Below are positions 13,798 to 32,000 of a DNA stretch of 32,000 nt, one piece after another. Each line of letters opens with the position of its first letter. Within the stretch, counting starts at the first letter, position 1. The notes beneath the pieces are model-generated. The model saw nothing but the letters and a program-made list of their open reading frames with translations, made no database searches and was not told the origin of the DNA. The stretch lies in NCBI RefSeq assembly GCF_000025925.1, contig NC_014033.1:360001-392000 (forward strand). Reading direction: 5' to 3'. Source of the DNA: Xylanibacter ruminicola 23. Its GTDB lineage: Bacteria > Bacteroidota > Bacteroidia > Bacteroidales > Bacteroidaceae. Both the position numbers and the translations under genes were made by a program.

Positions 13798-13829
13798 TTT
13801 GCGGGTTACATAAAAACACGCTAATTTTG
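13798..13829 (+). promoter_or_regulatory. Strong Bacteroidetes-type promoter (TTTG-N20-TAATTTTG) with no CDS downstream
   Basis: TTTG at 13798-13801 and TAATTTTG at 13822-13829. The architecture TTTTGCGGGTT...TAATTTTGCAACCGCAAA closely parallels the tRNA-Phe promoter at 18894-18934. Confidence 0.65.
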
Positions 13830-13835
13830 CAACCG

Positions 13836-13927
13836 CAAATAATAATTTTTTTGATTTGTTTTAGTAGATTAGTTTTTAAGTAGTTTGTTTTTCGAGAACC
13901 GGGTGTCGTGATGACAGCCGGTTTTTT
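13836..13927 (+). ncRNA. Candidate small non-coding RNA (~90 nt) bounded by its own promoter and an intrinsic terminator
   Basis: The predicted start is a few nt after the -7 box. The body is AT-rich with no ATG-initiated ORF. The terminator is AACCGGgTGTC - gtgat - GACAgCCGGTT followed by TTTTTT (13897-13927). The sppA promoter lies beyond the terminator, so this is not simply the sppA leader. Confidence 0.4.
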
Positions 13928-13944
13928 GTGTTATTTTTCGTTTA

Positions 13945-13979
13945 TTTGTTGGCTGTATGCAAAAAAGTTGCTATCTTTG
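13945..13979 (+). promoter_or_regulatory. Bacteroidetes-type promoter of sppA
   Basis: TTTG at 13945-13948 and TATCTTTG at 13972-13979, 32 nt upstream of ATG 14012. Confidence 0.6.
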
Positions 13980-14011
13980 CAAACTGTTACGTAACCAATA
14001 AAAGACATTTT

Positions 14012-15808: not shown

Positions 15809-15824
15809 AAAAGAAAATAAAGTT

Positions 15825-17009: not shown

Positions 17010-17766
17010 TACTTACGAGTTTCCTTATCAAGATATACCCAACTTCCCTGTGTCAACCGTCGAGGGTCACAAGGGTAAGCTCATTTTTGGTAAGTTAGGT
17101 GGTGTCGACATCATGGCCATGCAGGGCCGTTTCCACTTCTACGAGGGCTACTCTATGAAGGATGTCACCTTCCCCGTTCGCGTCATGTACGAGCTGGGCA
17201 TCACCACCCTGTATGTGTCGAACGCAGCAGGCGGTATGAACCCCCAGTTTAAGATTGGCGACCTGATGATTATCACCGATCACATCAATCTCTTCCCCGA
17301 GCATCCGCTGCGTGGTAAGAACTTCCCCACAGGTCCCCGATTCCCAGATATGCACGAAACCTACGATCACAACCTCATTGCCGAGGCCGACAGCATCGCC
17401 AACGATCTTAATATCCCCGTGCAGCATGGTGTGTATGTAGGCGTTCAGGGCCCCACCTTCGAGACCCCTGCCGAATATAAGATGTATCGCATCTTTGGTG
17501 GCGATGCTGTAGGTATGAGTACCGTACCCGAGGTAATCGTAGCCCACCACTGTGGCATCAAAACCTTTGGTATCTCGGTCATCACCGACCTGGGTGGCTT
17601 CGACGTGCCCGTCGAGGTAAGTCACGAGGAGGTGCAGGAGGCTGCCAACATGGCACAGCCCAAGATGACTGCCATTATGCGCGAGATGATTATCCGAGCC
17701 GAGCGTATCCAGGCTCACAACCAAGACAAGTTTAATACCGATCACCCAACTGAAGGATGGAAATAG
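16894..17766 (+). CDS. punA: Purine nucleoside phosphorylase, trimeric PNP-I (inosine/guanosine) type
   Basis: AIVLGTGLG, MQGRFHFYEGY (the human and B. subtilis enzymes have the same motif) and DAVGMSTVPEV. Confidence 0.9.
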   Translation: MYTKIQETASWLKERMTTSPKTAIVLGTGLGQLASEITDTYEFPYQDIPNFPVSTVEGHKGKLIFGKLGGVDIMAMQGRFHFYEGYSMKDVTFPVRVMYELGITTLYVSNAAGGMNPQFKIGDLMIITDHINLFPEHPLRGKNFPTGPRFPDMHETYDHNLIAEADSIANDLNIPVQHGVYVGVQGPTFETPAEYKMYRIFGGDAVGMSTVPEVIVAHHCGIKTFGISVITDLGGFDVPVEVSHEEVQEAANMAQPKMTAIMREMIIRAERIQAHNQDKFNTDHPTEGWK

Positions 17767-18863
17767 CAAAATTAGGAGAATTCGGTCTTATCGACCGTTT
17801 AACAAAGGATATCGAAATCAAGAACGCCAGCACCGTAAAAGGTGTTGGCGATGATTGCGCCGTACTCAGCTACCCCGATAAGCAGGTACTCGTTACCACC
17901 GATATGCTGATGGAGGGCGTACACTTCGACCTTACTTATATCGACCTCAAGCACCTGGGCTACAAGTCGGCCATGGTAAACATCAGCGATATCTTCGCCA
18001 TGAACGGCACACCCCGTCAGCTCACCGTTTCGCTCGCCATCAGCAAGCGTTTCAGTGTCGAGGATATCGAGGAGTTCTACAGCGGACTGCGCCTGGCCTG
18101 CGATAAGTGGAATGTAGATGTGGTTGGTGGCGACACCACCTCATCCTATACCGGCATGGCCATCAGCATCACCTGTATTGGCGAGGCTGCCAAGGAGGAG
18201 ATTGTGTACCGCAATGGCGCCAAGGATACCGACCTGGTATGCGTAAGTGGCGACCTGGGTGCAGCCTATATGGGCCTGCAGCTCCTTGAGCGCGAAAAGA
18301 ACGTTTACTACGGTCAGATAAACGATCTGCAAAAGAAGATAGCTGAGGCCAAAGCCGCCGGCAACGATGCAAAACTGTCAACTCTCAACTCTCAGCTGTC
18401 AGCTCTCAAGGATTTCCAGCCCGATTTCAGTGGTAAGGAGTATCTGTTGCAGCGCCAGTTGCAGACCGAGGCCCGTGGCGATATCATTCAGAAGCTGCGC
18501 GAGGCAGGCATCCGTCCTACCGCTATGATGGACATCAGCGATGGCCTCTCAAGCGAACTCATGCACATCTGTAAGCAGAGTGGGGTAGGCTGCCGTATCT
18601 ACGAAAAGAATATTCCTATCGACTATCAGACAGCCGTAATGGCCGAAGAAATGAACATGAACGTTACTACTTGCGCCATGAATGGTGGCGAAGATTACGA
18701 ATTATTGTTCACCGTTCCCATCGGCGATCACGAGAAGATTCAGCAGATTGATGGCATTAAACTCATTGGTCACATTACCGACGCAAAATTCGGTCAAATA
18801 CTCGTAACCCGTGATAATCAGGAGTTTGCGTTAAAAGCACAAGGCTGGAACCCTTTGGCATGA
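17757..18863 (+). CDS. thiL: Thiamine-monophosphate kinase ThiL (AIR-synthase-related fold)
   Basis: LGEFGLIDRL, GVGDDCAVL, GGDTTSS and MDISDGLSSEL. The start overlaps the PNP stop by 10 nt. Confidence 0.87.
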   Translation: MEIAKLGEFGLIDRLTKDIEIKNASTVKGVGDDCAVLSYPDKQVLVTTDMLMEGVHFDLTYIDLKHLGYKSAMVNISDIFAMNGTPRQLTVSLAISKRFSVEDIEEFYSGLRLACDKWNVDVVGGDTTSSYTGMAISITCIGEAAKEEIVYRNGAKDTDLVCVSGDLGAAYMGLQLLEREKNVYYGQINDLQKKIAEAKAAGNDAKLSTLNSQLSALKDFQPDFSGKEYLLQRQLQTEARGDIIQKLREAGIRPTAMMDISDGLSSELMHICKQSGVGCRIYEKNIPIDYQTAVMAEEMNMNVTTCAMNGGEDYELLFTVPIGDHEKIQQIDGIKLIGHITDAKFGQILVTRDNQEFALKAQGWNPLA

Positions 18864-18893
18864 AAAAATAAAGTGTTAAAAGGTGTTTAAAAG

Positions 18894-18925
18894 TTTGGCG
18901 GGTTCGAAAAATAGTCGTACCTTTG
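18894..18925 (+). promoter_or_regulatory. Bacteroidetes-type promoter of tRNA-Phe
   Basis: TTTG at 18894-18897, N20, TACCTTTG at 18918-18925, about 48 nt upstream of the tRNA. Confidence 0.65.
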
Positions 18926-18973
18926 CACCCGCAAAACAACGAAAGGATGTTTGCAAAACGAATTTGAAATGTT

Positions 18974-19046
18974 GGTGCCTTAGCTCAGTTGGTAGAGCAT
19001 CGGACTGAAAATCCGTGTGTCCCCGGTTCGATTCCTGGAGGTACCA
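18974..19046 (+). tRNA. tRNA-Phe: tRNA-Phe (anticodon GAA)
   Basis: Cloverleaf folded by hand. Acceptor stem GGTGCCT/AGGTACC with discriminator A, D loop AGCTCAGTTGGTAGAGC, anticodon loop CTGAAAA, variable loop GTGTC, T arm CCCGG-TTCGATT-CCTGG (one C:T mismatch). CCA is not encoded. Confidence 0.95.
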
Positions 19047-19062
19047 CTCCTCCTTTCATTAG

Positions 19063-19096
19063 CCCGGTCTTGTAGTTATCTACAGCCGGGTTTTTT
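19063..19096 (+). terminator. Rho-independent terminator after tRNA-Phe
   Basis: CCCGG(tct)TGTAG - ttat - CTACA(g)CCGGG followed by TTTTTT (19091-19096). Confidence 0.8.
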
Positions 19097-19113
19097 CGTA
19101 TATATACCTAAAA

Positions 19114-19176
19114 TGTTTAATGTTTAATCTTTAATGTTTAATGTTTAATCTTTAATGTTTAATCTTTAATGTTTAA
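19114..19176 (+). repeat. Nine tandem copies of the heptanucleotide T(G/C)TTTAA
   Basis: Read directly: TGTTTAA TGTTTAA TCTTTAA TGTTTAA TGTTTAA TCTTTAA TGTTTAA TCTTTAA TGTTTAA. The array ends 6 nt before ATG 19183. Confidence 0.95.
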
Positions 19177-19182
19177 TGTAAC

Positions 19183-20010
19183 ATGGGCATAGTTATTGGT
19201 ATCGATGTTGGTATTTCAACTACAAAGATTGTTGGAATCAAGAATGGCAAGGTGTCAGCTCCAATCAGCATCACCGCTGCCGATCCTATCACGTCACTTT
19301 TCGGAGCCTTTGGCAAGTATCTGCACGATAATGATATCAATCTGCAGGATGTCGATCAGGTGATGCTCACAGGCGTAGGTGCTGCTTATATCGATCAGCC
19401 CATCTACGGATTGCCCACCGCCAAGAGTCAGGAGTTCGTTGCCGATGGTCTGGGCGCCCGTTTCGAGTCAAAGCTCGATCACACCATCGTTGTGTCAATG
19501 GGTACTGGTACCTCGTTTGTGCGCTGCGATGGCAACGATATGCGCCATATTGGCGGTATTGGCGTGGGTGGTGGTACCTTGGCAGGCTTAGCCCGCATTA
19601 TGCTCAACACCAGCGATATCAAGCAGGTGGCCACCATGGCCAAGCACGGTAACATTCGTAATATCGACCTTACCATTGGCGATATCAGCGCCATCCCCGT
19701 GCCAGGACTCACCATGGATACCACTGCCAGTAACTTTGCCAACGCCCAGAGCGATGCCTCAAAGGAGGATATTGCCGCAGGATTGATCCATATGGTACTG
19801 CAGTCGATAGGCTCAGCCGCCTGGCTCGCCTCTATAGGCAGCGATATACGCGATTTCGTGCTCATAGGCAACCTCTCGCTGCTTCCCCAGTGTAAAGAGG
19901 TGTTCCCCGCCTTAGAAACGCTTTACAACATCCGTTTCCACATCCCCAAGTACTCGCAGTATTGCACCGCCATCGGCGCCGCCCTCGATTACACCGCCAA
20001 CCACAAATAA
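19183..20010 (+). CDS. coaW: Type II (Fumble-family, CoaW-like) pantothenate kinase
   Basis: ASKHA-fold motifs IGIDVGISTTKIV, VSMGTGTSF, IGGIGVGGGTLAGLARIML and NIDLTIGDIS. By my recollection of the sequences, these line up with S. aureus CoaW and eukaryotic PanK motifs (GTGTS, GGIGTGGG, VGDIY). 275 aa. Confidence 0.72.
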   Translation: MGIVIGIDVGISTTKIVGIKNGKVSAPISITAADPITSLFGAFGKYLHDNDINLQDVDQVMLTGVGAAYIDQPIYGLPTAKSQEFVADGLGARFESKLDHTIVVSMGTGTSFVRCDGNDMRHIGGIGVGGGTLAGLARIMLNTSDIKQVATMAKHGNIRNIDLTIGDISAIPVPGLTMDTTASNFANAQSDASKEDIAAGLIHMVLQSIGSAAWLASIGSDIRDFVLIGNLSLLPQCKEVFPALETLYNIRFHIPKYSQYCTAIGAALDYTANHK

Positions 20011-20014: not shown

Positions 20015-20611
20015 TTAGTGCATATCACAAGGAGCAGTACTGATTATCAGGTGTTTCATGGGGTGACCGCCCCATAGATTGTCGTCAAGGTACTCGAATC
20101 CCACTTTGGTATAGAGTGCCTCACCGTCGGGATTGCCTTTATCAACCAGCAGTCCCACTCTGGGCAGGTGTAACAGGTAGCCTCGTTCCCTGGTGGCCAT
20201 CAGTAACTGCTGGGCTATACCCTGCCTACGATAGGCTGGTAGCACGGCCAGCGAGTCGAGATAGAGCTCGCCAGCCTGTGTCTCATCGTCCATACCAGTA
20301 TGATCCTTACCGATGTACGTCTTGGCGGCCTCGATAAAAGCACACCGCAACTCGTGCAGGCGGCTTCCATCGTAGCTTACCGATACGCCTACCACCTGCT
20401 TACCGTCCATCGCCACCAGCGTGTTCTTGTAACTGTACTGCGAGTCATCACGTTCTACGAGGTGGCACATCATCCGGTAAAAGTCGTCCAATCCGTAGCC
20501 CTCGCCACAGAAAAACTTACAACACTCGTCTGTCATTGCCATCATTATCAGTCGGGCAATATCCTTGTTCTGTTCCTTTATCGCGTTCTTAATCTCTATC
20601 ATCTTAACCAT
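20015..20611 (-). CDS. GNAT family N-acetyltransferase (last gene of the operon)
   Basis: GNAT motif A: LAVLPAYRRQGIAQQLL, then VGFEY near the C-terminus. ATG at 20611 is preferred over the TTG at 20614. It overlaps the upstream stop (20604-20606) by 8 nt. An alternative ATG at 20602 lies 1 nt after that stop. Confidence 0.8.
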   Translation of the reverse strand: MVKMIEIKNAIKEQNKDIARLIMMAMTDECCKFFCGEGYGLDDFYRMMCHLVERDDSQYSYKNTLVAMDGKQVVGVSVSYDGSRLHELRCAFIEAAKTYIGKDHTGMDDETQAGELYLDSLAVLPAYRRQGIAQQLLMATRERGYLLHLPRVGLLVDKGNPDGEALYTKVGFEYLDDNLWGGHPMKHLIISTAPCDMH

Positions 20612-21725
20612 CAATTTGGAAATAGCGCATGATATTCTTTTTGAACTCTTCGAGACTGAAAGGCTGCTCCTCTATCTCGAAGGTAAGACCTATCTGCTTG
20701 AGCAAGGCATCAATCTTCTCGGGCATGATCTGCGACAGTTCGGTCATGGTGTGAGGGTGGTCGGTGCTGGCGGCATCGAGCAACCGATAGGCAATCCAGG
20801 CTCCTGTGGCAGTCTCCCAGCATACGGCATTGGTGCCGTAGCGTTTCCAGGTGGTCTGGTTGGCCACCACACTCTTCACCCAGTAGAGCCTTTCTTTTGT
20901 GTCCCAGAAAAGTATGCCCGCCTGATCCTCGCCTTTCAGGCAATGGGGTACGGGGATAGAAAGCAACTCTTCATCGGTGATGTCGGCGCCCCGTTCCAGA
21001 AAATGCTGCTGCATGCCTCGTGGGGCCTGATAGATATTAGCCGTGCCCAGCAGGTTCTCGTCGCTGTGCAGCATGGAGAGCAGTTCCTCATGGGGTACGG
21101 GCAGATAATGGCGCTCGCTGCCGTGATAGGTGAGGCGTATGGTGCCACCTTCGTCATTCAGTTGCTGTGTCACATCGATGACGTTCTGCCTGGTTCCAAA
21201 CACCAACTCGGCGCGGCAACTCTCCTCGGCATACATGAATGGCGACCAGGTGCCAAATACCTCATATTCATCACTCACAGAATCGTCGTGTTCCAGTTCG
21301 AAGGCATAGTGTGGCTCCTGTGGTTTGTATCGCTGATAGACGTGTTCGAGTATGCCTGGATTGATGCCAAAGCCGAACATGATACGGCTGTGCGTAGGCC
21401 AGCACAATATCCGCTTCATTTCCTCTATATAGACGGGCGTAGATACGGTATCATCCGTTTCTATGCCGTCAGCGAAGCCAGCCACGTCGATACAGTCAAG
21501 GCCGTAGTCTATGCACATACGGGCAATCTCTATGCTGTTGGCCACCGATGTATTGACCACCACATCGAACTCATCGTGGTGACGGGGCAGAAAGTCGAAA
21601 ATGTCTTGTCCTTCTTTCAAGTCGCAGACAGTCAGTTTAAAACTGTCTTTTGGCTCCTGCTCATACATTATTTTCTCAAAGGCATGGGCGATATTACCAT
21701 AGCCTGCTAATAAAATTCGTTTCAT
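20604..21725 (-). CDS. Saccharopine dehydrogenase / homospermidine synthase-like NAD(P) enzyme, paralog 1
   Basis: N-terminal Rossmann loop RILLAGYGNIAH. The spacing NTS..(I/V)..MCIDYGLDxID, GFGINPGILEHV, ELEHDD....EVFGTWSP and NAVCWETATGAWIAY parallels bacterial HSS (NLSV...ALYIDT, GANPGMVS, ERD...FVNTWSVEG, NATGLQVSSAVLAG) as I remember it. 373 aa. Confidence 0.65.
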   Translation of the reverse strand: MKRILLAGYGNIAHAFEKIMYEQEPKDSFKLTVCDLKEGQDIFDFLPRHHDEFDVVVNTSVANSIEIARMCIDYGLDCIDVAGFADGIETDDTVSTPVYIEEMKRILCWPTHSRIMFGFGINPGILEHVYQRYKPQEPHYAFELEHDDSVSDEYEVFGTWSPFMYAEESCRAELVFGTRQNVIDVTQQLNDEGGTIRLTYHGSERHYLPVPHEELLSMLHSDENLLGTANIYQAPRGMQQHFLERGADITDEELLSIPVPHCLKGEDQAGILFWDTKERLYWVKSVVANQTTWKRYGTNAVCWETATGAWIAYRLLDAASTDHPHTMTELSQIMPEKIDALLKQIGLTFEIEEQPFSLEEFKKNIMRYFQIDG

Positions 21726-21751
21726 AGCGTGATAATTTTTAAGACGTGAAA

Positions 21752-22852
21752 TTAAAAATAGCGCATGATATTCTTTTTGAACTCTTCGACGCTGAAAGGC
21801 TGCTCCTCTACCTCGAAGGTAAGACCTATCTGGTTGAGCAAGGCGTCAATCTTCTCTGGCATGAGCAGCGACAGCTCCGTCATGGTGTGAGGATGGTTGG
21901 TGCTGACGACATCGAGCAGCCGATAGGCTATCCAGGCTCCAGTGGCCGTCTGCCAGCAAACAGCATTGGTGCCGTATCGCTTCCAGGTGGTCTGGTTGGC
22001 CATCACGTTCTTCACCCAGTACATCCTATCGCGTGTGTCCCAGAAGAGCATTCCCACATGATCATCACCCTTGAGGCAGTGAGGCACGGGAATCTTGAGG
22101 AACTCCTCAACCGTCATTTCAGTGCCATGGTCCAGAAAGCATTGCTGCATTCCTCGTGGGGCCTGAAAGAGATAGGCCGATCCGAGCAGATTCTCGTCGC
22201 TGTGCAGCATCGACATCAGTTCTTCGTGAGGTATGGGGAGATACTTGCGTTGCTCGCCATGATAGGTAAGGTGCATGGCGCCACCATCATCCTTCAGCTG
22301 CTGTGTAATGTAATTGATCTTATCTTTGTTTATCACGACCAACTCAGCACGGCAACTCTCCTCGGCATACATGTACGGTGACCAGGTGCCAAATACCTCA
22401 TATTCATCACTCACAGCATTGTCGTGTTCCAACTCGAAGGCATAGTGCGGCCCCTGTGGCTTGTACTTCTGATAGACGTGTTCGAGGATACCGGGATTGA
22501 TGCCAAAGCCACACATGATGCGGCTGCGGGTCGGACATTTCAGCAGCGGATCCAAAGCGAACAAGAAGTCCACAGCCGTCGTACCATCACCCATACCTTC
22601 ATCTACACCCATATCAATATAGTCCAGGCCGTAGTCGATGCACATCTGTGTAACATCACAGGTCTCGGCCTGCGACGTGTTTAATACGAGATCAAATTCG
22701 TTATGATGCTCTGGCAGATAACTGAGAATCTCTTGTCCATCCTTCAAGTCGCAGGTAGTAAATGTATAACTTCCACTCGGTTCCTGCTCTTTCATGATTT
22801 GTACAAAGGCATGGGCGACATTGCCATAGCCTGCTAACAAAATTCGTTTCAT
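21752..22852 (-). CDS. Saccharopine dehydrogenase / homospermidine synthase-like NAD(P) enzyme, paralog 2
   Basis: 366 aa. By eye about 70% identical to paralog 1, with the same motifs (GYGNVAH, GFGINPGILEHV, ELEHDN..EVFGTWSP). A 4-nt ATGA overlap joins it to the upstream C-domain gene. Confidence 0.65.
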   Translation of the reverse strand: MKRILLAGYGNVAHAFVQIMKEQEPSGSYTFTTCDLKDGQEILSYLPEHHNEFDLVLNTSQAETCDVTQMCIDYGLDYIDMGVDEGMGDGTTAVDFLFALDPLLKCPTRSRIMCGFGINPGILEHVYQKYKPQGPHYAFELEHDNAVSDEYEVFGTWSPYMYAEESCRAELVVINKDKINYITQQLKDDGGAMHLTYHGEQRKYLPIPHEELMSMLHSDENLLGSAYLFQAPRGMQQCFLDHGTEMTVEEFLKIPVPHCLKGDDHVGMLFWDTRDRMYWVKNVMANQTTWKRYGTNAVCWQTATGAWIAYRLLDVVSTNHPHTMTELSLLMPEKIDALLNQIGLTFEVEEQPFSVEEFKKNIMRYF

Positions 22853-24096
22853 TTCTTATAGAATATAATATTACTTATAGTTTCTTCTTGGTTGCCTACA
22901 AGTCGGAGTGCCATCTGGCCGGTTATTTCCGACAAGGTGTCGATCTGTTGTTGAGTATATAGGGCACTGCTACAATCAGTAAATACCTCGTATAGATCGT
23001 CACGACGTGTGACGTAGGTAGATGAGTGCTCGCCTGTGAGCGATGGATCTATATGATAGGTGTTCCACAGTTTGCCGTCGATATTGATATATTCTGAGAT
23101 AGTGCTGGCATTATACCCCATCTCCGCACCATCGTCGAGACCAATTTCGCGCAGCAGATGATATTCAGGGTAGATGCGGTAGCGCATGGAACAGAATAAC
23201 TCTCTGCGTGTCTGGCTAAGCAGTTCGGTCACGGTCTGACCTGGATCTGTATCGATCATGATAGGCAGACTGGTTAAGTAGTGACCATAGACATGGTCGG
23301 TGAGTCGCCGGTCGCCGCGCCCATGATTAAAGGTGTAGAAAGCCACACGCCTCTCGCCCGACATATAGGCTAATGCCAAGGCATAGGCAGCATAGAAAAC
23401 AGTGGTGGGCGTTTGACCTATGCGTTGACAGCCTTCATCGATGATAGTGGCCGACACCATGGGGTGCGAACTAATGGCAGGTCCCAATGGGTTGTCGGTC
23501 TCACGACAAAAATCAGTCACTTGTAGGCCCTCGAACTTCTTCAAATAGTATTCCCTGGCACGGCGATAGGCATCGCTGTCGTAGCTGGCGATTTCCTGAC
23601 GTGTTATTTCTGCGGCAATGTCTCCCTGCTGATAGAGGGGCTTGCCCTGCAGCGCTTCTTCAAAAGCATTCCACAGTGCTCTTTGAGATATACCGTCGAA
23701 GAAAAGGTGATGGTTTTCCATGACAACGTAGCACTTACTGTCGGTCTCTACCAGAGAGAGGTGAACGCAGGCCTCGTTGAATATGTCGAAGGGTTTTGTA
23801 AACGTGGGTTCTGCAGCCTCCCATTCCGCATCGCTCATGCGATAGTAATGCACGTTGTTGGGCATCTGCCAGTCCTCACAAATCATGATGTCGTCACCCT
23901 GGCGAACTAGATGTATATGCAGGTAACGCTGCTCATCCAGCATCCGCTGCATGGCTCGCTGAAAACGCTGTGCTGACGAGCGTTCGAAGGGCATACATAA
24001 TGTAACGTTGTGCTGCGTCAACTCTGGGGCTTGCATAAATTCCTCATAGCACTCCCACTGTATGGCGTTCAATGGGTAAGTAATATTTTCTTTCAT
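22849..24096 (-). CDS. Free-standing NRPS-type condensation (C) domain protein
   Basis: Catalytic motif ENHHLFFDGIS (HHxxxDG; codons at 23692-23712). C1-like YPLNAIQWECY and C5-like VYGHYLTSLPIMID. At 415 aa it is one C domain with no A, T or TE domain attached. Confidence 0.75.
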   Translation of the reverse strand: MKENITYPLNAIQWECYEEFMQAPELTQHNVTLCMPFERSSAQRFQRAMQRMLDEQRYLHIHLVRQGDDIMICEDWQMPNNVHYYRMSDAEWEAAEPTFTKPFDIFNEACVHLSLVETDSKCYVVMENHHLFFDGISQRALWNAFEEALQGKPLYQQGDIAAEITRQEIASYDSDAYRRAREYYLKKFEGLQVTDFCRETDNPLGPAISSHPMVSATIIDEGCQRIGQTPTTVFYAAYALALAYMSGERRVAFYTFNHGRGDRRLTDHVYGHYLTSLPIMIDTDPGQTVTELLSQTRRELFCSMRYRIYPEYHLLREIGLDDGAEMGYNASTISEYINIDGKLWNTYHIDPSLTGEHSSTYVTRRDDLYEVFTDCSSALYTQQQIDTLSEITGQMALRLVGNQEETISNIIFYKK

Positions 24097-24129
24097 AATC
24101 TTTGTTTTAGGGTTATATTATTTGTTGTT

Positions 24130-25554
24130 TCACTTCATTTTGCTGTCCATACCACCTCCCAGTGCTTTATATAGCTGAATGTGTGCAGCTATCATTTCAT
24201 AGCGGTGGGCCAGTAGTTGCAGACGGGCTTCGAGCAACGACTGGCGGGCCAGCAGCACCTGCAGGTAGTTCACGTCTTCATCGTACTGCATACGAACCTT
24301 CGAGGCATCGGCAATGCGCTGCAGCTTCTCAACTTGTTGCTCGCCCAGGCTGATGGCCCGGCGTGCGTACTGCTCTGTAGCCAGGATGTCGTTCACTTCC
24401 TGACCAGCCTCTAACACCGTCTGACGGAAGGCTACTTTTGCCGCCTCCTGTTCAGCTTTGGCACGCTGCACCTCGGCACGCAGTCGGCCTCCTTGGAAGA
24501 TAGGTTGTGTAAGCGAGCCTAAGGCGCTCATCAGCACACCTGCAGGACTGACAATCTCTCCAACATCATTCGTCCACCCGATGCTACCAGAGAGCGACAG
24601 CGATGGATAGAGCGCTGCGCGTGCCTCGTTGGTGGCATAGAATGCAGCCTTCAGCTCAGCCTCGGCCTGACGAACGTCGGGACGCCGGGCCAGGGCACGG
24701 ATGCTGATCGACGGCATACTGCTGATGGCGATGCACGATGAGCCCAGCGAGTCGCGGTCGATATGCTGACAGGGACGCCCCAGCACGGTACACAGGGCAT
24801 TCTCGGCCTGACGTAGTTGCATGCAGAGTTCCTCGAGGGTGGTCTCAGCTTCGAGCTTGGCAGCCTCCGACTGGTCGACATCGTCGCTGGTAGCCTCGCC
24901 TACAGCCAGTAGCACTTTTTGGGTGGCGATACCCTCCTCCCAACTCTGGATGATGGAGCGGGTATCGGCTATCTGTGCATCGTACATCTCCAGTTGGTAG
25001 TAGGCCGCAGCCACAGTAGCAATAAGTTCGGTGCGAACAGCCTGCTCGTAGGCCATCTGCTGTTCTACAGTGGCAGCAGCACCTCGCTTGGCATTGCGCA
25101 CTCGTCCGAATGCATCAATCTCCCAACTGGCCTCTAAACCTACGTTATAGCCAGAGGATGTAGCAGTAAAATCGCTGTTTTTAAATCGCGAATTGCTCTT
25201 CTCGGCCGTCAGCCCTATGGCGGGAAACAGTTCGCCTTTTGCACCACGGAGCAAGGCTTTGGCAGCCTGTACTTGCAAGTGGCCCTGCTGAAGGTCGCTG
25301 TTGTGCAACAATGCTTCGTCGATGAGTGCAACCAAGCGGGGCTCGGTAAAGGCCTCGCGCCAGTCTGCTGGCAAATTGCCTGCCACGCTGTCGGCAGTAG
25401 AAACACCCGCTGCATTGAGTTGCGCTTTCAGTACATCATTGGCTGTAGAGTCAGAGTGATAAGATGAGTAGGTTTTACAGCCCGACAGCATACAGATGGC
25501 GGTAAGCACAGCTAAGGTTGTCATGGCCTGACGCGGTCGTAGCCTTTCTTCCAT
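24130..25554 (-). other. OMF moiety of the fusion ORF; possible independent internal initiation at ATG 25554 or ATG 25524
   Basis: In-frame ATGs sit at 25552-25554 (M1029) and 25522-25524 (M1039), upstream of the lipobox Cys1054. No stop codon lies between the RND moiety and this segment. Confidence 0.45.
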
Positions 25555-28500
25555 CGTTTGGAAGAGAATGAAGAACACAGGCACAAAGAGCAGCAGGGCC
25601 AGCGTACCTACCAGCATACCGCCTACCACACATAAGCCCAGCGTAACGTTACCCATGGCACCGGCGCCCCGCTCAAAGATCATTGGCATCAGACCTACGA
25701 TGAGTGTGAGGGCGGTCATCAGGATGGGGCGCAATCGTGCTTTGGCGGCATCGAGTGCTGCTGCAACGATGGTCATCCCCTCACGGCGACGTTCGCAGGC
25801 ATATTCTGTAATCAGGATGGCAGTCTTGGCCAGCAGGCCGATAAGCATGATGATACCCACCTGCATATAGATATTGTTCTCCAGCTCCGCGAGATTGATG
25901 AGCAGGAAGCTGCCAACCAGTCCGAAAGGCACGCTGAACATGACGGCCATAGGAATGAGCAGACTCTCGTATAGGCAACAGAGCACAATGAAAACGAGCA
26001 ACAGGCTGATGGCAAACACCCAGGCTGTGGATGATGAGGAAGCGGCTTCCTCGCGAGCCGTACCAGTGTACTCATAGCCATAGCCCTGTGGCAGGGTGGC
26101 AGCCGACACCTCGCTCACCACATCAATCACATCGCCCGAGGTGTAGCCCTCGGCAGGCGTCAGTTCTACGCTGATGCCCTGGAATAGGTTGAAGCGATTA
26201 ATCGACTGAAGGCCATAGGTCTTCTTCAGCGTGATGAGTTCAGTGATTGGCGTGTAGGCACCCTTCTCCGTGACAACCAAGATGTTGTTCAGGGCGTCTT
26301 TGTTCATGCGCAATTTGGGATCTGACTGCAGCATGACGTGATAAAGCTTTCCGAAACTGTTGAACTGTGAGGCATAGTTACCGCCGATATAGCCGTTGAG
26401 CACACTGAGCACGCTGGCAGGCTCGATGCCATAGCGCTTACACAGCGAGGCATTCACCGTGACGGTATATTGCGGATAATTCACCTCGTAAGGGGAGTAA
26501 ACCTCTTCTATCTCAGGTCGTGCTTCCAGTGCCTTCATAAAGCTGTCAGACACTTCCTTGAGTTTGGTAATGGAACCGCCGCCGTAGTCTTCAACATACA
26601 GTTCCACACTGTTGCTATAGCTATAGCCAAAGACGGTAGGGAGCAGGAATACAAACATCGAACCACTCTTCACCTGATGGGTGGCTGCCTCTATACGGTC
26701 GTAGATGCTGAAGATGTCGTGGCCATCGTCCTGACGGTCGTCCCAGTGCTTCAGACGTCCCATCACCAGGCCGGTGTTGGGGCCCTCTCCGCCAAGGATA
26801 TTCCAGCCGGCTACCGAACCTGTGGCCCGCACATCGGGGTCGTTCTCAATGATTTCCGACATCTCCTTCACCGTCTTTTGTGTTTGTGCCAATGTAGAAC
26901 CCGATGGTGTGGTAATGTCGACAAAAACAATGCCTGTGTCCTCGTCGGGTACCAGACCAGTAGGGGTGCTATAGAGCATCCAGGCCAACAGGACGATGCT
27001 AACAGCAGTCAGCACACCTACGAGCCAGCGGCGACGGATGAACCAGCCCATAGCCCGACTGTATTTTCCTAACAGCGCGTCGAAAGCCTTGTTGTAGGCA
27101 CGGCGGAAGCGTACTGACCACGATTGAGCCTCCCCACCCTCTGGGGACCGTGGCTTCATCAACAGCGCACACAGAGCAGGACAGAGCGTCAATGCACAGA
27201 ATGTAGATATGGCTACAGCCACAGCCATCGTCAGTCCGAACTGTCGGTAATAGGCTCCGCTGAGTCCACCCATAAATGCGGCGGGAATAAACACACACAT
27301 GAAGACAATGGTGGTGGTGATAATGGCAGTCGAGATGTTATGCATCGCCTGGATAGTGGCATTCTTGGCTGTTGCAGCCGGATCTTCCAGTTTCTCCTGC
27401 ACCGCCTCCACCACCACGATGGCATCGTCTACCACCGTACCGATGACCAGTACCAAAGCAAAGAGGGTAATGAGGTTGAGTGTGAAACCCACCATATACA
27501 TAAAGGCAAAGGTGCCCACAAGCGAGACGATGATGCTTATGGACGGAATGATGGTGGCGCGCCAGTTTTGCAGGAACAGCAGTACCACGAGAATGACGAG
27601 CAGCAAGGCCTCAAACAGTGTCTTGTAAACCGCATTCATCGAGGCATCGAGGAAGTCGTTGGTGTCTAAGAGCACCTTGAACTCCAACCCTGCCGGCAAT
27701 TTCGGCTCCAACTCGGTCATGAGCCGGTCTATTTCATGGTTCACCTGTTGGGCGTTGGCCCCGGTAGCTGGGGTGATGATGGCAATGGTACCATTGTGAG
27801 AGTTCACCCAACTATCGCAGGCATAGGTTACCGTACCCAATTCTACGCGAGCCACATCTTTCAGGTGCAGGTCGTTAAAGCCATCGGTCTTTAAGACAAT
27901 ATCCTCAAAATCTTGTGGATTTTCCAAGCGCCCCCTATATACCAATGTGTACTGGTAGGTACCCTTTGAATCCTCACCCAACGTACCGATGGCAGCTTCC
28001 ACGTTTTGACCTTCCAGGGCTTTGATAATGTCTTCTGGATTCAGTTGGTACAATGCCATCATCTTCGGGTCCATCCATATACGCATGCTATAAACATTGC
28101 CCATCAACTGAATATTGCCAACACCGGCGATGCGTTGCAGGCGTGGCTGCACGTTGATATTGAAATAGTTGGTGATGAAGGCATTGTCATAGCGATTGTC
28201 GGGACACTCCAGGGCGATGATGCGCAGCATGCCCTGTTCTTCCTTCTCCACCTGCACACCAATGTTCAGCACCTCGGCGGGCAGATAGCCTTTAGCCTCC
28301 TCTACACGGTTCTTGACACGGATCTGTGCCAGGTCGGGGTCGGTGCCAGGTCGGAAGGTAACACTGACGGTAGCTATGCCACTACTGGTTGACGATGAAG
28401 TAATATACTCCATGCCCTCCACACCATTGACAGCCTCCTCAATAGGCGTAACCACACTTTTCATCACAGCCTCGGCGCTGGCTCCAGTGTACTCCGTATT

Positions 28501-28638
28501 GATAGTGACCACGGGTGGTGCCACATTCGGGAACTGCTCAACAGGCAGATTGATATATCCTACAATGCCCGCCAAAAGGACAAGCACTGAAAGGGCGCAG
28601 GCAAAGATAGGACGATTGATAAAGAAACGACTAATCAT
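24130..28638 (-). CDS. RND (HAE1/AcrB-like) inner-membrane pump fused in frame to a NodT-type outer-membrane factor lipoprotein
   Basis: Single uninterrupted 1502-aa ORF. Residues 1-1028 form the AcrB-like part: MISRFFINRPIFA, proton relay GTVVDDAIVV (TM4), LLAKTAIL (TM10), RLRPILMT (TM11), last TM ...LLLFVPVFFILFQ. Residues 1029-1502 start with a complete lipoprotein signal, MEERLRPRQAMTTLAVLTAICMLSGC. A TolC/NodT-type repeat protein follows (...LFPAIGLTAEKSNSRF..., ...LYPSLSLSGSIGWTND...). Confidence 0.9.
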   Translation of the reverse strand: MISRFFINRPIFACALSVLVLLAGIVGYINLPVEQFPNVAPPVVTINTEYTGASAEAVMKSVVTPIEEAVNGVEGMEYITSSSTSSGIATVSVTFRPGTDPDLAQIRVKNRVEEAKGYLPAEVLNIGVQVEKEEQGMLRIIALECPDNRYDNAFITNYFNINVQPRLQRIAGVGNIQLMGNVYSMRIWMDPKMMALYQLNPEDIIKALEGQNVEAAIGTLGEDSKGTYQYTLVYRGRLENPQDFEDIVLKTDGFNDLHLKDVARVELGTVTYACDSWVNSHNGTIAIITPATGANAQQVNHEIDRLMTELEPKLPAGLEFKVLLDTNDFLDASMNAVYKTLFEALLLVILVVLLFLQNWRATIIPSISIIVSLVGTFAFMYMVGFTLNLITLFALVLVIGTVVDDAIVVVEAVQEKLEDPAATAKNATIQAMHNISTAIITTTIVFMCVFIPAAFMGGLSGAYYRQFGLTMAVAVAISTFCALTLCPALCALLMKPRSPEGGEAQSWSVRFRRAYNKAFDALLGKYSRAMGWFIRRRWLVGVLTAVSIVLLAWMLYSTPTGLVPDEDTGIVFVDITTPSGSTLAQTQKTVKEMSEIIENDPDVRATGSVAGWNILGGEGPNTGLVMGRLKHWDDRQDDGHDIFSIYDRIEAATHQVKSGSMFVFLLPTVFGYSYSNSVELYVEDYGGGSITKLKEVSDSFMKALEARPEIEEVYSPYEVNYPQYTVTVNASLCKRYGIEPASVLSVLNGYIGGNYASQFNSFGKLYHVMLQSDPKLRMNKDALNNILVVTEKGAYTPITELITLKKTYGLQSINRFNLFQGISVELTPAEGYTSGDVIDVVSEVSAATLPQGYGYEYTGTAREEAASSSSTAWVFAISLLLVFIVLCCLYESLLIPMAVMFSVPFGLVGSFLLINLAELENNIYMQVGIIMLIGLLAKTAILITEYACERRREGMTIVAAALDAAKARLRPILMTALTLIVGLMPMIFERGAGAMGNVTLGLCVVGGMLVGTLALLLFVPVFFILFQTMEERLRPRQAMTTLAVLTAICMLSGCKTYSSYHSDSTANDVLKAQLNAAGVSTADSVAGNLPADWREAFTEPRLVALIDEALLHNSDLQQGHLQVQAAKALLRGAKGELFPAIGLTAEKSNSRFKNSDFTATSSGYNVGLEASWEIDAFGRVRNAKRGAAATVEQQMAYEQAVRTELIATVAAAYYQLEMYDAQIADTRSIIQSWEEGIATQKVLLAVGEATSDDVDQSEAAKLEAETTLEELCMQLRQAENALCTVLGRPCQHIDRDSLGSSCIAISSMPSISIRALARRPDVRQAEAELKAAFYATNEARAALYPSLSLSGSIGWTNDVGEIVSPAGVLMSALGSLTQPIFQGGRLRAEVQRAKAEQEAAKVAFRQTVLEAGQEVNDILATEQYARRAISLGEQQVEKLQRIADASKVRMQYDEDVNYLQVLLARQSLLEARLQLLAHRYEMIAAHIQLYKALGGGMDSKMK

Positions 28639-29777
28639 GATTGTTTTCCTCCTTTCTTGACTTTCTTTTCTGTTACCTCTATTCCGTCGGTTACAAATCC
28701 GGCTCCCTCGGCAATGATAGAATCGCCTTGCTCAAGACCGGCCGTCACAACAAAGTTTTGTCCGTCATTATAAGGCAAAATTGTCACCTCCGTTTCCACT
28801 GCCTTCCCATCGACCACTTTATAGACGAGATATTTATTGTGGATATCAACGACCGCTTCCTGTGGAATGACAACGACATGGTGCTGGATGTAGGGTAATT
28901 CGATATAGCCGTTACTGCCATTACGCAATCTCTCCGTGGGATTATGGAAGGAAGCACGTATATAAGTGGCACCATTGTTCAGATCAATGGTTCCACTGAT
29001 GACATCAATATGTCCCTTTTCCTCTAACTTATAGCCCCAATTGCTATAAAACGTGACAGGTGGCAGCTTTTCAAGAAGCTCGTCGGCAGAGTTACAGTTG
29101 AAGTCCTTAAGAAGTTCAGAGAGTGTCTCCTCAGAGAGGGCACCATATGCATGGAGATTGTTGTTGTCTGAAACGATTACCATGTGGTTTTCGCCGTCGG
29201 TTTCAACAAGATCACCCACACGGTATTCAATCATACCTATGGTGCCATCGACAGGACTACAGATCGTAGTGTAGTCCAATTGGGTACGCGCAGATTCTAA
29301 TTCAGCCAGTGCCGCTTCCAACTGTGAATAGGCTTCTTCCTTAGCATGACGGGCACGAAGCAGGTCGGACTCCCCCACCATTTTTTGTGCATATAGCTTC
29401 TCCTTGCCATCTAAGTTCAACTGGGCAGAGGAGAGTGCAACGCGAGCAGTGGACACCTGAGCTTTGGCGGCATCAACAGCAGCAATATAAGGGCTTTGGT
29501 CGATAACGAATAGCGGCTGCCCCTTCTTTACATGAGCACCTTCCTTTACTAAAATCTTAACAAGTCGTCCACTGACAAGTGGGCGAACATATATACTATG
29601 TAAAGATTCCATCTTCACAATAAAGTTGCGAGTCAGGGTGATGTCTTGCCGCTGCACACGCAACAGGCGGTAACAATCCTTCACCGTGGGTGTGGCCTCT
29701 TCACCACAGTTGCTGCAGAGTATCGACAGAGTCAGCACGGCAACTACAGATATAACATGGTATAATCTATGATGCAT
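28635..29777 (-). CDS. RND efflux periplasmic adaptor (membrane fusion protein), paralog proximal to the pump
   Basis: Signal/lipobox region VVAVLTLSILCSNCG. Lipoyl-like VKKGQPLFVIDQSPY, coiled-coil hairpin AAKAQVSTARVALSSAQLNLDGKEKLYAQKMVGESDLLRARHA, and SPVDGTIG. A 4-nt ATGA overlap joins it to the pump gene. Confidence 0.88.
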   Translation of the reverse strand: MHHRLYHVISVVAVLTLSILCSNCGEEATPTVKDCYRLLRVQRQDITLTRNFIVKMESLHSIYVRPLVSGRLVKILVKEGAHVKKGQPLFVIDQSPYIAAVDAAKAQVSTARVALSSAQLNLDGKEKLYAQKMVGESDLLRARHAKEEAYSQLEAALAELESARTQLDYTTICSPVDGTIGMIEYRVGDLVETDGENHMVIVSDNNNLHAYGALSEETLSELLKDFNCNSADELLEKLPPVTFYSNWGYKLEEKGHIDVISGTIDLNNGATYIRASFHNPTERLRNGSNGYIELPYIQHHVVVIPQEAVVDIHNKYLVYKVVDGKAVETEVTILPYNDGQNFVVTAGLEQGDSIIAEGAGFVTDGIEVTEKKVKKGGKQS

Positions 29778-29789
29778 AACAGATTGTAT

Positions 29790-30920
29790 TTAAAGTTCTT
29801 TCTTTCCTGTTTCCTGGGCAACAGCCATTCCCTCAGTCACCATTCCGGCTTTCTCGGCAATGATGACATCGCCGTCATTCAGCCCACTGCTCACCACATA
29901 GTCCTCATCGTTGGCAGAAATGCCCTTCACCTCTGTAGAGACGGCTCTGCCATCGACGATACGATAAACAAAACATTTGTCCTGAATGTGGATGGTGGCA
30001 TCCTGCGGTATAACAAAGACCCCATGCTTTGTGGTTGGCAGCACTACATATCCATTACTACCGTTGCGGAACATCTCCGAAGGGTTGTCAAACGACGCCC
30101 GGATAAGGACGGATCCTGTCGAGATGTCTGCTTCACCGCTAACGGCATCGAAGTGCCCTTTCTGCGGAAGTTCTTCACCCCAGGTAGTATAGAGCGAGAC
30201 AGGAGGCAACTTTTTCAGCAGTTCGTCGGAAGTACTGCAGCCGTACTCATCGAACAAGTTCACGAGCAATTCCTCTGACAACGTGACATAAGCATAGATA
30301 TGCTTGTTGGCCGCTACGGTGGCAATAGGCAGACTGCTGGTAGGGAACACGACATTATCTTCGAGGAAATTCAGAATACTAATGGTTCCGTCAACAGGGC
30401 TGTAGATGGTAGTGTAATTCAGGTTGGAACGCGCAGATGCCAGTTCCGCCTGGGCAGCCTCGAGTTGGGCCGCAGCATCTTCTTTGGCATAACGCGCCCG
30501 GAGTAGGTCATTCTCACCCACCATCTGCTGTGCATAGAGCTTCTCTTTACCATCTAAGTTCAGTTGCGCCGTGGAGAGTGCAGCACGGGCTGTCCTCACC
30601 TTGGCTTTTGCGGCATTGGCAGCAGCGATGTAGGGAGCTTGGTCGATGATGAAGAGCGGCTGCCCTTTCTTCACGCGACTACCTTCCTTCACGCAAACCT
30701 TCTTCAATGTCCCTCCAATAAGAGCACACACATCCACATTCTCTTTGCCCTCTATCTTTGCCACAAACCGGCGCTCTAACGTGTAGTTCTGTTTCTCTAC
30801 ACGCAACGTCTTATATGTGTTGGCGGGGCTGGATGCTGTTTCCCCGCAGCCGGTCACCAATGTCTGTATGCACAAAAGCATCAGAAAGCTCCATAAAGTG
30901 TATCGTGAAAATCTTTTCAT
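29790..30920 (-). CDS. RND efflux periplasmic adaptor (membrane fusion protein), second paralog
   Basis: Lipobox LVTGC. VKKGQPLFIIDQAPY, AAKAKVRTARAALSTAQLNLDGKEKLYAQQMVGENDLLRARYA, SPVDGTIS. By eye about 55-60% identical to the neighbouring adaptor. Confidence 0.88.
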   Translation of the reverse strand: MKRFSRYTLWSFLMLLCIQTLVTGCGETASSPANTYKTLRVEKQNYTLERRFVAKIEGKENVDVCALIGGTLKKVCVKEGSRVKKGQPLFIIDQAPYIAAANAAKAKVRTARAALSTAQLNLDGKEKLYAQQMVGENDLLRARYAKEDAAAQLEAAQAELASARSNLNYTTIYSPVDGTISILNFLEDNVVFPTSSLPIATVAANKHIYAYVTLSEELLVNLFDEYGCSTSDELLKKLPPVSLYTTWGEELPQKGHFDAVSGEADISTGSVLIRASFDNPSEMFRNGSNGYVVLPTTKHGVFVIPQDATIHIQDKCFVYRIVDGRAVSTEVKGISANDEDYVVSSGLNDGDVIIAEKAGMVTEGMAVAQETGKKEL

Positions 30921-32000
30921 ACTTTATTATTTTGAATGTTCTTGTAATTCTGAAGCAATTTGAATAGGATGATCACTGTTACAGTTCCAACCACGACATC
31001 AGTCGCAGGCTGTGCCAGGAATACACCCATATCGGCATGATCTGTCAGTAGGCGAGGCAGGAGCCAAACAAAAGGTACAAGCAGAAGCAATGTACGTGAG
31101 ATGCCTATCCAGAAAGTGAGTACGGGCCGGTTCATGGCCTGCAGCGTACACTGGCTGGCAAACTGCACTGTAGCCACGAAGAACACCACGAACGAGAGGC
31201 GAACCATCGGTACGGCGTAGTCCACCATAGGACCATCGCCAACAACCAATCGTACCACCGGCTCTGTCAGGATCATCATCAACAGGCACACCATCATGGA
31301 CCATACTAATGTAAATGCGAGCAACAACTTGACATTGTCCCATACCCGCTGCCATTTTCCAGCCCCCAGATTATAACTCGTTATTGGTTGGGAACCATAA
31401 GCCATGCCACGGACAGGAAAGAAAAGGAAGTCGTGAAGCATGATGACGAGTGCCATCGTGCCAACGCCCCAATCGCCAGCCAGATGGTAGAGTGTCTGGT
31501 TGTAAACGCCCATCTGCGCTGTTTCGGCCAGCATCATCGCCATGGGTGCTGTTCCCAAAGCCAGGCAAGGCACTATATGCCGCCAGTCCAGACTCAGAAG
31601 CTTCATCCGGATCCGCAGATTGCCCACACGTGCAAGCATCACAATAGCGACGACGGCAGAAGTTACCTCAGCCACAGTGGTAGCCCATGCTGCTCCGGCT
31701 ATACCCCAACCAAACAGGAATATAAAGATGGGGTCGAGTATCATGTTAATCACGATACCAGACCCGATTACAAAGAGTGCTTCGTTGGAGTATCCCTGAA
31801 CGAGCAGAAACGGTGCCAGCATGCTTGATATGATGCATGCCGCATTGCCGGGGGTGGAAATGCGCAGATAGCACTCGGCCATGGCAGCTGTCTGTGGACT
31901 ACCGCCAAAAATACGTATAAGTTCGGGGCAGAATACTTCTACTAAAAGCAAGGTGAGTATGGCTAACAAAATACTGAACGCCATCATGCTGCCAAGTGTG
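30917..32000 (-). CDS. MATE family efflux transporter, 5' end beyond the window
   Basis: The frame is open to the window edge. The 356 visible residues are polytopic and match the C-terminal two-thirds of MATE/NorM-like proteins (GWGIAGAAWATTVAE, MAYGSQPITSYNLGAGK). Its TGA overlaps the adaptor ATG (ATGA). Confidence 0.82.
   Translation of the reverse strand, partial: TLGSMMAFSILLAILTLLLVEVFCPELIRIFGGSPQTAAMAECYLRISTPGNAACIISSMLAPFLLVQGYSNEALFVIGSGIVINMILDPIFIFLFGWGIAGAAWATTVAEVTSAVVAIVMLARVGNLRIRMKLLSLDWRHIVPCLALGTAPMAMMLAETAQMGVYNQTLYHLAGDWGVGTMALVIMLHDFLFFPVRGMAYGSQPITSYNLGAGKWQRVWDNVKLLLAFTLVWSMMVCLLMMILTEPVVRLVVGDGPMVDYAVPMVRLSFVVFFVATVQFASQCTLQAMNRPVLTFWIGISRTLLLLVPFVWLLPRLLTDHADMGVFLAQPATDVVVGTVTVIILFKLLQNYKNIQNNKV

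Follow-up and report, generated by a model that had tools for sequence, protein, structure and literature searches.

The window analysed here is a 32,000 nt stretch of the Xylanibacter ruminicola 23 genome (contig NC_014033.1, positions 360,001 to 392,000; coordinates below are counted from its first letter). Inspection of its open reading frames (ORFs) showed eight co-oriented genes on the minus strand between positions 20015 and 32000. Read from 5′ to 3′, they code for a MATE-family exporter, two periplasmic adaptors, an RND permease fused to an outer-membrane factor (RND::OMF), a stand-alone condensation (C) domain of the nonribosomal peptide synthetase (NRPS) type, two paralogous proteins (A and B) resembling carboxyspermidine dehydrogenase (CASDH), and a GNAT acetyltransferase. 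Sequence comparisons make it somewhat probable that this operon is a dedicated cassette for the synthesis and secretion of a small amine-derived metabolite. The gene order and gene families had been proposed in a preliminary description of the window made from the sequence alone, and were borne out by the ORF coordinates and by Pfam and NCBIfam models, the paralogs being recognized at the level of their fold. The features of the operon are the following (aa, amino acids; AF2, AlphaFold2):

30917..32000, minus strand: MATE-family exporter, 3′ 1084 nt of the gene (360 of 453 codons), continuing beyond the window; PF01554 (84.4 bits) and TIGR00797
29790..30920, minus strand: periplasmic adaptor 1, 376 aa; TIGR01730 RND_mfp, 219 bits (cutoff 95)
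28635..29777, minus strand: periplasmic adaptor 2, 380 aa; TIGR01730 RND_mfp, 226 bits (cutoff 95)
24130..28638, minus strand: RND::OMF fusion ORF, 1502 aa; ACR_tran and OEP/NodT within a single ORF
25525..28638, minus strand: RND (HAE1, AcrB-like) permease portion of the fusion, residues 1-1038; ACR_tran, 983 bits (residues 2-1027), and TIGR00915, 975 bits (cutoff 940)
25477..25524, minus strand: internal lipoprotein-type signal peptide MTTLAVLTAICMLSGC, residues 1039-1054, read from the sequence
24130..25479, minus strand: OMF (NodT/OprM-type) portion of the fusion, residues 1054-1502 plus the stop codon; TIGR01845 outer_NodT, 265 bits (cutoff 210), and OEP, 147 bits
22849..24096, minus strand: stand-alone NRPS-type C domain, 415 aa, with HHLFFDG at 23692-23712; PF00668, 94.8 bits
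21752..22852, minus strand: CASDH-like paralog A, 366 aa, identified by an AF2/Foldseek fold match and a profile match to 8deb; GYGNVA Rossmann motif at 22814-22831, Glu165 at 22358-22360 and His-Glu-Glu at 22220-22228
20604..21725, minus strand: CASDH-like paralog B, 373 aa, identified by alignment to paralog A; HEE at 21084-21092
20015..20611, minus strand: GNAT acetyltransferase, 198 aa, with an ATG start and an alternative TTG at 20614; Acetyltransf_7/_1/_10, 32-40 bits

Four of the seven junctions consist of overlapping start and stop codons. Three of them are the ATGA overlaps described earlier, all read directly in the sequence, which link the MATE gene to adaptor 1 (30917-30920, a TGA/ATG overlap), adaptor 2 to the RND::OMF gene (28635-28638) and the C domain to paralog A (22849-22852). 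The fourth is an 8 nt overlap between paralog B and the GNAT gene (TAA/ATG, 20604-20611). The remaining gaps measured exactly 12, 33 and 26 nt, as had been stated, the 12 nt gap separating the two adaptor genes. The region upstream of the window was read from another X. ruminicola assembly (GCA_019973335.1, locus L001), which contains an identical copy of the final 12 kb of the window. The operon was expected to start beyond position 32000, and it does so: MATE is its first gene, with a TTG start 278 nt past the window end and a full length of 453 aa (L001 8643-10004). An AT-rich spacer of 198 nt precedes it, in which a TATATTTG box is found 50 nt ahead of the MATE start, and beyond this spacer lies a divergent Peptidase_M15_4 gene. 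The GNAT gene is the last of the operon, and is convergent with a pantothenate-kinase-like gene ending at 20010. Scans for sigma-70 promoters (20, against 14.6 ± 3.7 in shuffled sequence) and for terminators (10, against 8.4 ± 2.6) gave values at shuffle background, Bacteroidetes promoters being outside the model used for the former. A search of the operon strand for TAnnTTTG returned only two intragenic matches and, outside the window, a single candidate situated 50 nt upstream of MATE. Internal transcription units therefore received no support from the sigma-70 and terminator scans; internal promoters of the Bacteroidetes type may be present.

The enzymes of the operon

The two paralogs share 70% identity. 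Neither matched any Pfam or NCBIfam model above threshold, those for Sacchrp_dh_NADP and Sacchrp_dh_C included; the sole trace was a Sacchrp_dh_NADP match of 17.2 bits in paralog A (cutoff 25.1), with none in paralog B. An AF2 model obtained from 27 homologs (pLDDT 92.3) was compared with known structures using Foldseek. The best matches were the CASDH entries 4rl6, 4ina, 8h52 and 8deb (E 1e-19 to 1e-18, TM about 0.72), followed by the homospermidine synthase (HSS) entries 6y87, 2ph5 and 6s65, which were five to six orders weaker (E 1e-13 to 1e-11, target-normalised TM 0.57-0.62), and then by lysine 6-dehydrogenase and saccharopine reductase. A profile of the paralog family matched the Bacteroides fragilis CASDH (8deb) with an E of 3e-5, aligning the paralog segment PHEEL with YHEEL of 8deb, residues H209-E210-E211 with H228-E229-E230, and E165 with E188. 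The His228-Glu229-Glu230 triad of the B. fragilis enzyme (BfCASDH) is central to catalysis, its Glu188 and Glu229 have been proposed to coordinate aspartate semialdehyde, and the triad is missing from saccharopine and lysine dehydrogenases (PMC10413350). In 17 sequences of the paralog family, down to 26% identity, H209, E211 and E165 were invariant and E210 was conserved in at least 90%; G8 and G10 of the Rossmann loop were also invariant in the family. The paralogs are thus closest to CASDH, and are predicted to be NAD(P) oxidoreductases of a divergent CASDH-like family.

The paralogs had previously been described as HSS-like. This held for the fold, which is of the saccharopine-dehydrogenase/HSS type, but not for the nearest family, which was CASDH by fold, by profile and by the triad. 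HSS was rejected as the closest relative given its weaker fold match, its length of ~470 aa as compared to 366 and 373 aa, and its absence from the profile matches. When 1.84 billion representative proteins were searched exhaustively with HMMER, the paralog family gave only 89 matches at E ≤ 1e-3, and 21 at E ≤ 1e-30; the operon defines a very small and uncharacterised branch of the CASDH family. No carboxyspermidine decarboxylase (CASDC) was found in the operon, in its flanks or in any related locus examined.

Several further observations concern the paralogs. In other loci, single-copy relatives were closer to paralog B than to paralog A. A subclade with 33-35% identity was found beside an HD-domain gene in housekeeping contexts, in loci L057, L058, L075 and L076 (match at 10001-11100 in each). 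None of these four loci contained a C domain by tblastn, and neither a C domain nor a MATE was detected when a few adjacent ORFs of L057 and L058 were scanned with Pfam. These solitary paralogs indicate that membership of the cassette is not universal within the family. In UniRef, paralog A (UniProt D5EWT3) carries the name ‘Outer membrane protein’, which appears to be a misannotation because the protein has an N-terminal Rossmann motif and a dehydrogenase fold and lacks a signal peptide. Prevotella ruminicola 23 has the same proteins as the window, annotated as hypothetical, ‘condensation domain protein’ and ‘AcrB/AcrD family’. Opposite the paralog genes, the plus strand contains two ORFs (20565-21710, 381 aa, and 21746-22381, 211 aa) that are similar to each other; since they mirror a duplicated coding sequence and have no family matches, they are most likely non-coding shadows.

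The HHLFFDG motif of the C domain is intact, and H130, D134 and G135 were invariant in 27 homologs. When the C-domain profile was compared with PDB entries, TycC6 was the top match (1e-22), with 41 matches at E ≤ 0.01, while the AF2 model (pLDDT 89.8) superimposed on the LgrA C domain with a TM of 0.85-0.87. The protein is thus nearest to ordinary elongation and starter C domains (TycC6, LgrA, CDA-C1, RzmA). An analogy with VibH had been drawn earlier; VibH was absent both from these 41 sequence matches and from the top 50 Foldseek matches, and a specific relationship to it was rejected. The reported lack of adenylation (A), carrier (T) and thioesterase (TE) domains in the window stood, and none was found upstream in L001 either, no AMP-binding or PP-binding domain being present in the window plus 10 kb upstream. 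Distant stand-alone homologs of the C domain, 35-40% identical, were observed beside GT2 and Polysacc_deac_1 genes and one or two DUF6056/GT_STM0557_N genes (L007, 8102-17524; L008; L011, 4654-12593). This set of neighbours resembles the ArnC/ArnD/ArnT or LgmABC systems for aminosugar modification of lipid A, and by analogy hints that this clade of C domains may, in some bacteria, N-acylate free amines of lipid-linked sugars.

The GNAT protein gave domain calls of 38-40 bits at best, and its NCBIfam matches were far below the cutoffs. Its best match in the PDB was the uncharacterised 1u6m (3e-10). A SpeG-type enzyme had been suggested, yet SpeG structures were matched only with E values of 0.2-0.6, across the acetyl-CoA-binding core, and the suggestion was rejected. 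Judged by these matches, GNAT is a generic member of its family.

Conservation of the gene set and of the exporters

When one genome per species was scanned, only 16 loci were found to contain a member of the paralog family, all of them from Prevotellaceae, or Bacteroidales metagenome-assembled genomes (MAGs), of the rumen or ruminant gut; a metagenome scan added 53 loci. The proteins of the window were mapped onto all of these loci, and co-occurrence was counted in the 48 having a paralog at least 45% identical, many of them on short contigs. The C domain was present in 39 of the 48 loci, MATE in 30, and GNAT and RND in 26 each. In the 17 loci with long flanks, the C domain was found in 16 and MATE in 13; two more loci (L015 and L027) add a MATE detected by Pfam only. 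The commonest order was adaptor, adaptor, RND::OMF, C domain, paralog A, paralog B, MATE and GNAT (L014, L019, L033 and L036), the MATE gene therefore lying between paralog B and GNAT rather than at the front of the operon as in X. ruminicola. In two loci (L049 and L050) a paralog is located between the two adaptor genes, and three others (L021, L023 and L024) contain only the C domain, a paralog and MATE. In the more distant L027 (paralog 46% identical), the paralog, C domain and MATE precede a MacB-type ABC pump, which has an adaptor and an outer-membrane factor of its own. The co-occurrence of enzymes and pumps in other genomes, a check proposed in the preliminary description, was thus found in dozens of independent loci and in several orders; the pairing of MATE with a tripartite pump was conserved as well, with the MacB-type pump replacing RND in L027. 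The shuffled gene order argues for selection on the gene set, and together with the replacement of one pump type by another provides strong comparative evidence that the enzymes and the exporters work together. In L027 the group of genes at 3006-19397 includes, in addition to the paralog, C domain, MATE and MacB-type pump, those for a TonB-dependent-receptor-like outer-membrane protein, a choloylglycine-hydrolase-family amidase, a TAT-signal amidohydrolase and a DHO_dh plus 4Fe-4S protein; the receptor and hydrolases could serve for re-uptake and hydrolysis of the product.

In four loci the cluster includes NRPS modules with A, T and C domains (A-T-C), namely L015, L043, L051 and L042, the latter with two modules. 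In the A-T-C protein of L015 the core motifs of the A domain are complete, the carrier site reads GGDS and the C domain contains xHxxxDG. The A-domain specificity code of this protein was compared by hand with that of GrsA; only Asp235, indicative of an alpha-amino-acid substrate, was clear, and the remaining positions were ambiguous and were not used. A more distant locus, L062 (paralog 30% identical), combines A-T-C, DUF6056, a paralog and MATE. These modules suggest the cassette to be part of a modular, NRPS-related biosynthetic family, of which the window would contain a module-free version with two paralogs. Whether two paralogs and A-T-C modules exclude each other was also considered. 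Modules were present in none of the 18 loci with two paralogs and in four of the 30 with one, a difference that, with numbers as small as these, was not significant (Fisher p = 0.28), and mutual exclusivity was not adopted. Other genes found inside the cluster code for DUF6056/GT_STM0557_N, a GtrC-like GT-C membrane protein (L009, L025, L054 and L062), and for Acyl_transf_3 (L015, L017, L035 and L039).

With regard to the exporters, MATE matched TIGR00797/NorM-type models and not Wzx or MurJ, the two adaptors share 53% identity, and a complete tripartite RND (HAE1) set is present, with permease, adaptors and outer-membrane factor all above the TIGR cutoffs. The junction between the RND and OMF portions reads ‘...RPRQA-MTTLAVLTAICMLSGC-KTYSS...’, in frame and without a stop codon. 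The same was true for 25 of the 26 related loci, the exception (L015) being a frameshift in a MAG; besides the window (24130-28638), the single ORF was found in L009, L011, L013-L019, L025, L028-L043, L050 and L051. The linker varies in sequence and length, but always contains a stretch rich in K/R, a hydrophobic segment and a lipobox Cys. It often has no Met, which makes separate translation of the OMF portion impossible. The in-frame fusion and the linker features kept across loci imply a polyprotein rather than an assembly error, and RND::OMF resembles a polyprotein whose internal lipoprotein signal would be cut by signal peptidase II. No natural RND-OMF fusion was found described in a major review of tripartite pumps or in targeted literature searches. 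A natural polyprotein of this kind would bear on the fixed-stoichiometry assembly of tripartite pumps.

The MATE gene showed some peculiarities among the loci. The MATE at the front of the X. ruminicola operon shares only about 63% identity with the internal MATE of L014, L019, L033 and L036, while the other genes of these loci are 83-97% identical to those of X. ruminicola, which suggests that the exporter was relocated or replaced. Adaptor 1 is preceded in L003-L006 by only a 126-aa C-terminal remnant of MATE, and L003 has a release-factor gene further upstream.

The remaining 20 kb of the window contain housekeeping genes, coding for TamB, an Omp85 protein, GroES/EL, SppA, LpxK, ThiL and pantothenate kinase. 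The GC content of the operon (0.48-0.55) does not differ from that of this flank, and thus gave no signal of horizontal transfer. At the far end of the window, a TamB-like gene (9-4247, plus strand, 1412 aa) and an Omp85/POTRA gene (4210-6573, plus strand, 787 aa) overlap over 38 nt. The two resemble a TAM-type pair for outer-membrane assembly, in the order TamB then TamA-like, and are unrelated to the operon.

Proposed pathway, rival explanations and known systems

If the operon is a synthesis and secretion cassette, a pathway can be proposed. By analogy with CASDH, the paralogs would use NAD(P)H for the reductive condensation of an aldehyde, most likely L-aspartate beta-semialdehyde, with a primary amine, thereby adding a 3-amino-3-carboxypropyl unit, or two such units given the two paralogs. 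With no decarboxylase at hand, the carboxylates would persist, leaving a carboxy-polyamine or opine-like backbone. The C domain may then form an amide on a free amine of this backbone, taking its thioester donor from acyl-CoA, from an acyl carrier protein (acyl-ACP) or from a carrier protein encoded elsewhere, and GNAT could acetylate another amine, either as a biosynthetic cap or for self-protection. MATE would move the product across the inner membrane, and the RND pump would take it from the periplasm or the outer leaflet across the outer membrane. In the sister loci, the inserted A-T-C modules would add amino-acid units to the same scaffold. The product is accordingly probably a carboxy-polyamine or an opine-like compound. 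A plain polyamine is unlikely, since no carboxyspermidine decarboxylase accompanies the paralogs; as a product class, a secreted N-acyl or N-acetyl amine is plausible. A siderophore-like product had also been put forward, but neither the window nor L001 contains an uptake receptor, a transporter for uptake or an iron-linked gene, and only L027 has a TonB-dependent-receptor-like gene nearby.

Several observations weigh against this interpretation. The paralogs are only 14-17% identical to CASDH, and two BfCASDH residues are replaced in them, Asp140 by an invariant Asn119 and Ser144 by a nearly invariant Glu124; their substrates may therefore differ from those of CASDH. The weakest point of a biosynthetic role is that the operon does not encode an acyl donor: as it has no A, carrier or TE domain, the donor for a canonical, LCL-like C domain is left unexplained. 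A search of 5.8 billion proteins with the A-T-C protein of a sister locus found six close clusters, all of them metagenomic and none named X. ruminicola. The accessory genes of related loci (DUF6056/GT_STM0557_N and Acyl_transf_3) are typical of envelope glycan modification and not of soluble natural products, and no uptake or regulatory gene in the cluster points to the purpose of the product.

The accessory genes prompt a rival explanation, a system for the modification of the envelope or of its lipids. An amine-containing or acylated head group would in this case stay on the lipopolysaccharide, the capsule or an outer-membrane lipid, with MATE, a member of the MOP flippase superfamily, flipping the product and the RND pump delivering it to the outer membrane. 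In mycobacteria, MmpL transporters of the RND type act with PapA-type acyltransferases, which belong to the C-domain superfamily, PapA5 and MmpL7 being an analogous pair. DUF6056/GT_STM0557_N and Acyl_transf_3 genes lie inside the cluster in four loci each, and the distant C-domain homologs adjoin GT2, Polysacc_deac_1 and DUF6056 genes in an Arn/Lgm-like arrangement, which would agree with such a function. Nevertheless, the window operon lacks glycan genes, most loci have the C domain-paralog-MATE core without any glycosyltransferase, and the MATE is of the TIGR00797/NorM type rather than Wzx or MurJ. In addition, the RND protein scores as an AcrB-type HAE1 permease, and makes up, along with two adaptors and an exit duct of the NodT type, a machine for extrusion through the whole envelope. 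An envelope role is thus considered unlikely.

The multidrug type of the pumps, the weak similarity of GNAT to the aminoglycoside N-acetyltransferases AAC(2′) and AAC(3), and the confinement of the cluster to rumen Prevotellaceae and Bacteroidales MAGs would also suit a detoxification or resistance module. The enzymes would then modify a toxic amine, such as a plant alkaloid, a polyamine or a rumen antibiotic, by oxidation or reduction, by acylation or by acetylation, and the pumps would expel the conjugate. NRPS-type C domains and A-T-C modules are however biosynthetic and not catabolic, the CASDH catalytic triad points to the reductive formation of C-N bonds, and the strict translational coupling of the C domain to the paralog suggests a building pathway; detoxification therefore seems rather improbable. 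Another alternative, a common multidrug efflux operon lying by chance next to enzyme genes with which it shares no function, might be entertained because Bacteroidales are rich in efflux operons, although it is very improbable. The enzyme and pump families occur together in many independent loci in at least five orders, a paralog is embedded between adaptor genes in L049 and L050, the enzymes of L027 are paired with a different type of pump, and four of the seven junctions in the window are overlapping start and stop codons. Recurrence of the gene set in dozens of independent loci and in different orders goes beyond chance, and the comparative data essentially exclude chance adjacency.

Within the synthesis and secretion interpretation, a more specific and rather doubtful scheme can be envisaged, in which the operon would code for a previously unknown route, independent of S-adenosylmethionine (SAM), leading to a poly(aminocarboxypropyl) metabolite of the nicotianamine or opine type, such as a metallophore or a signal of rumen Prevotella. 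Two CASDH-derived enzymes of a new family would iteratively couple aspartate semialdehyde to an amine, and the C domain, working without a carrier protein, would draw on acyl-CoA or acyl-ACP to cap the product. In sister clusters, NRPS A-T-C modules would stand in for the second reductive aminase, and export would proceed through MATE and then through an RND-OMF polyprotein cleaved by lipoprotein signal peptidase. If true, this would represent a modular ‘reductive-amination / amide’ hybrid logic of assembly.

P. ruminicola and related bacteria rank with the most abundant members of the rumen community, and to our knowledge almost no specialised metabolites have been reported from them. Because the operon has a C domain and no A domain, genome-mining tools with NRPS rules requiring an adenylation domain would probably miss it; it could thus represent a hidden class of metabolite cluster in Bacteroidales. 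Its presence in P. ruminicola 23, which is cultured and sequenced, makes genetics and metabolomics feasible. The preliminary description knew of no cluster with this composition, and no description was found in the literature on Prevotella C domains and polyamines, in rumen NRPS surveys or in reports on CASDH homologs in natural-product clusters.

The operon shares individual traits with several known systems. As in CASDH/CANSDH of the alternative spermidine pathway (B. fragilis 8DEB, Helicobacter pylori 8H52), the paralogs have a three-domain saccharopine-dehydrogenase-type fold, a GxGxxG/A Rossmann loop, the His-Glu-Glu triad and the equivalent of Glu188; they differ in being about 30 residues shorter, in their low identity (14-17%), and in the duplication of the gene. 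Moreover, CASDH works with CASDC, whereas the paralogs are coupled to an NRPS C domain and exporters, and never to CASDC. Like VibH of the vibriobactin system, which acylates a free polyamine, the C domain stands by itself; its catalytic His is intact, polyamine-type enzymes are encoded next to it, and the use of a free amine as acceptor fits the pathway proposed. The operon, however, has neither an aryl or peptidyl carrier protein nor an A domain. With TriABC-OpmH, which needs two different adaptors, it shares an HAE1 RND permease, a NodT-type OMF and two paralogous adaptors. In that system, as in AcrAB-TolC and MexAB-OprM, the subunits are separate, in contrast to the 1502-aa RND::OMF ORF with its internal lipoprotein signal peptide.

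Export in two steps is known for EntS followed by a TolC-dependent RND pump, for CntI followed by MexAB-OprM, and for PvdE followed by PvdRT-OpmQ. The opine-type metallophores staphylopine and pseudopaline (Cnt systems) are made by a SAM-dependent nicotianamine-synthase-like enzyme and an octopine-type dehydrogenase. The product proposed here would likewise keep aminocarboxypropyl units, and an inner-membrane exporter is likewise combined with a tripartite pump. The Cnt enzymes nevertheless belong to other families, the operon lacks metal-uptake genes, and the chemistry suggested for it is drawn by analogy. The nearest published arrangement is that of the petrobactin-type clusters for NRPS-independent siderophores (NIS), in which CA(N)SDH-type polyamine enzymes and a MATE also lie near metabolite-assembly enzymes, in the company of a TonB-dependent receptor (PMC13573596). 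These clusters contain canonical CASDH and CASDC, IucA/IucC synthetases and the receptor (PMC13573596), whereas the X. ruminicola operon has a divergent, putative reductive aminase without a decarboxylase, no NIS synthetase and no receptor, and combines instead a stand-alone C domain with a pump in the form of an RND::OMF fusion.

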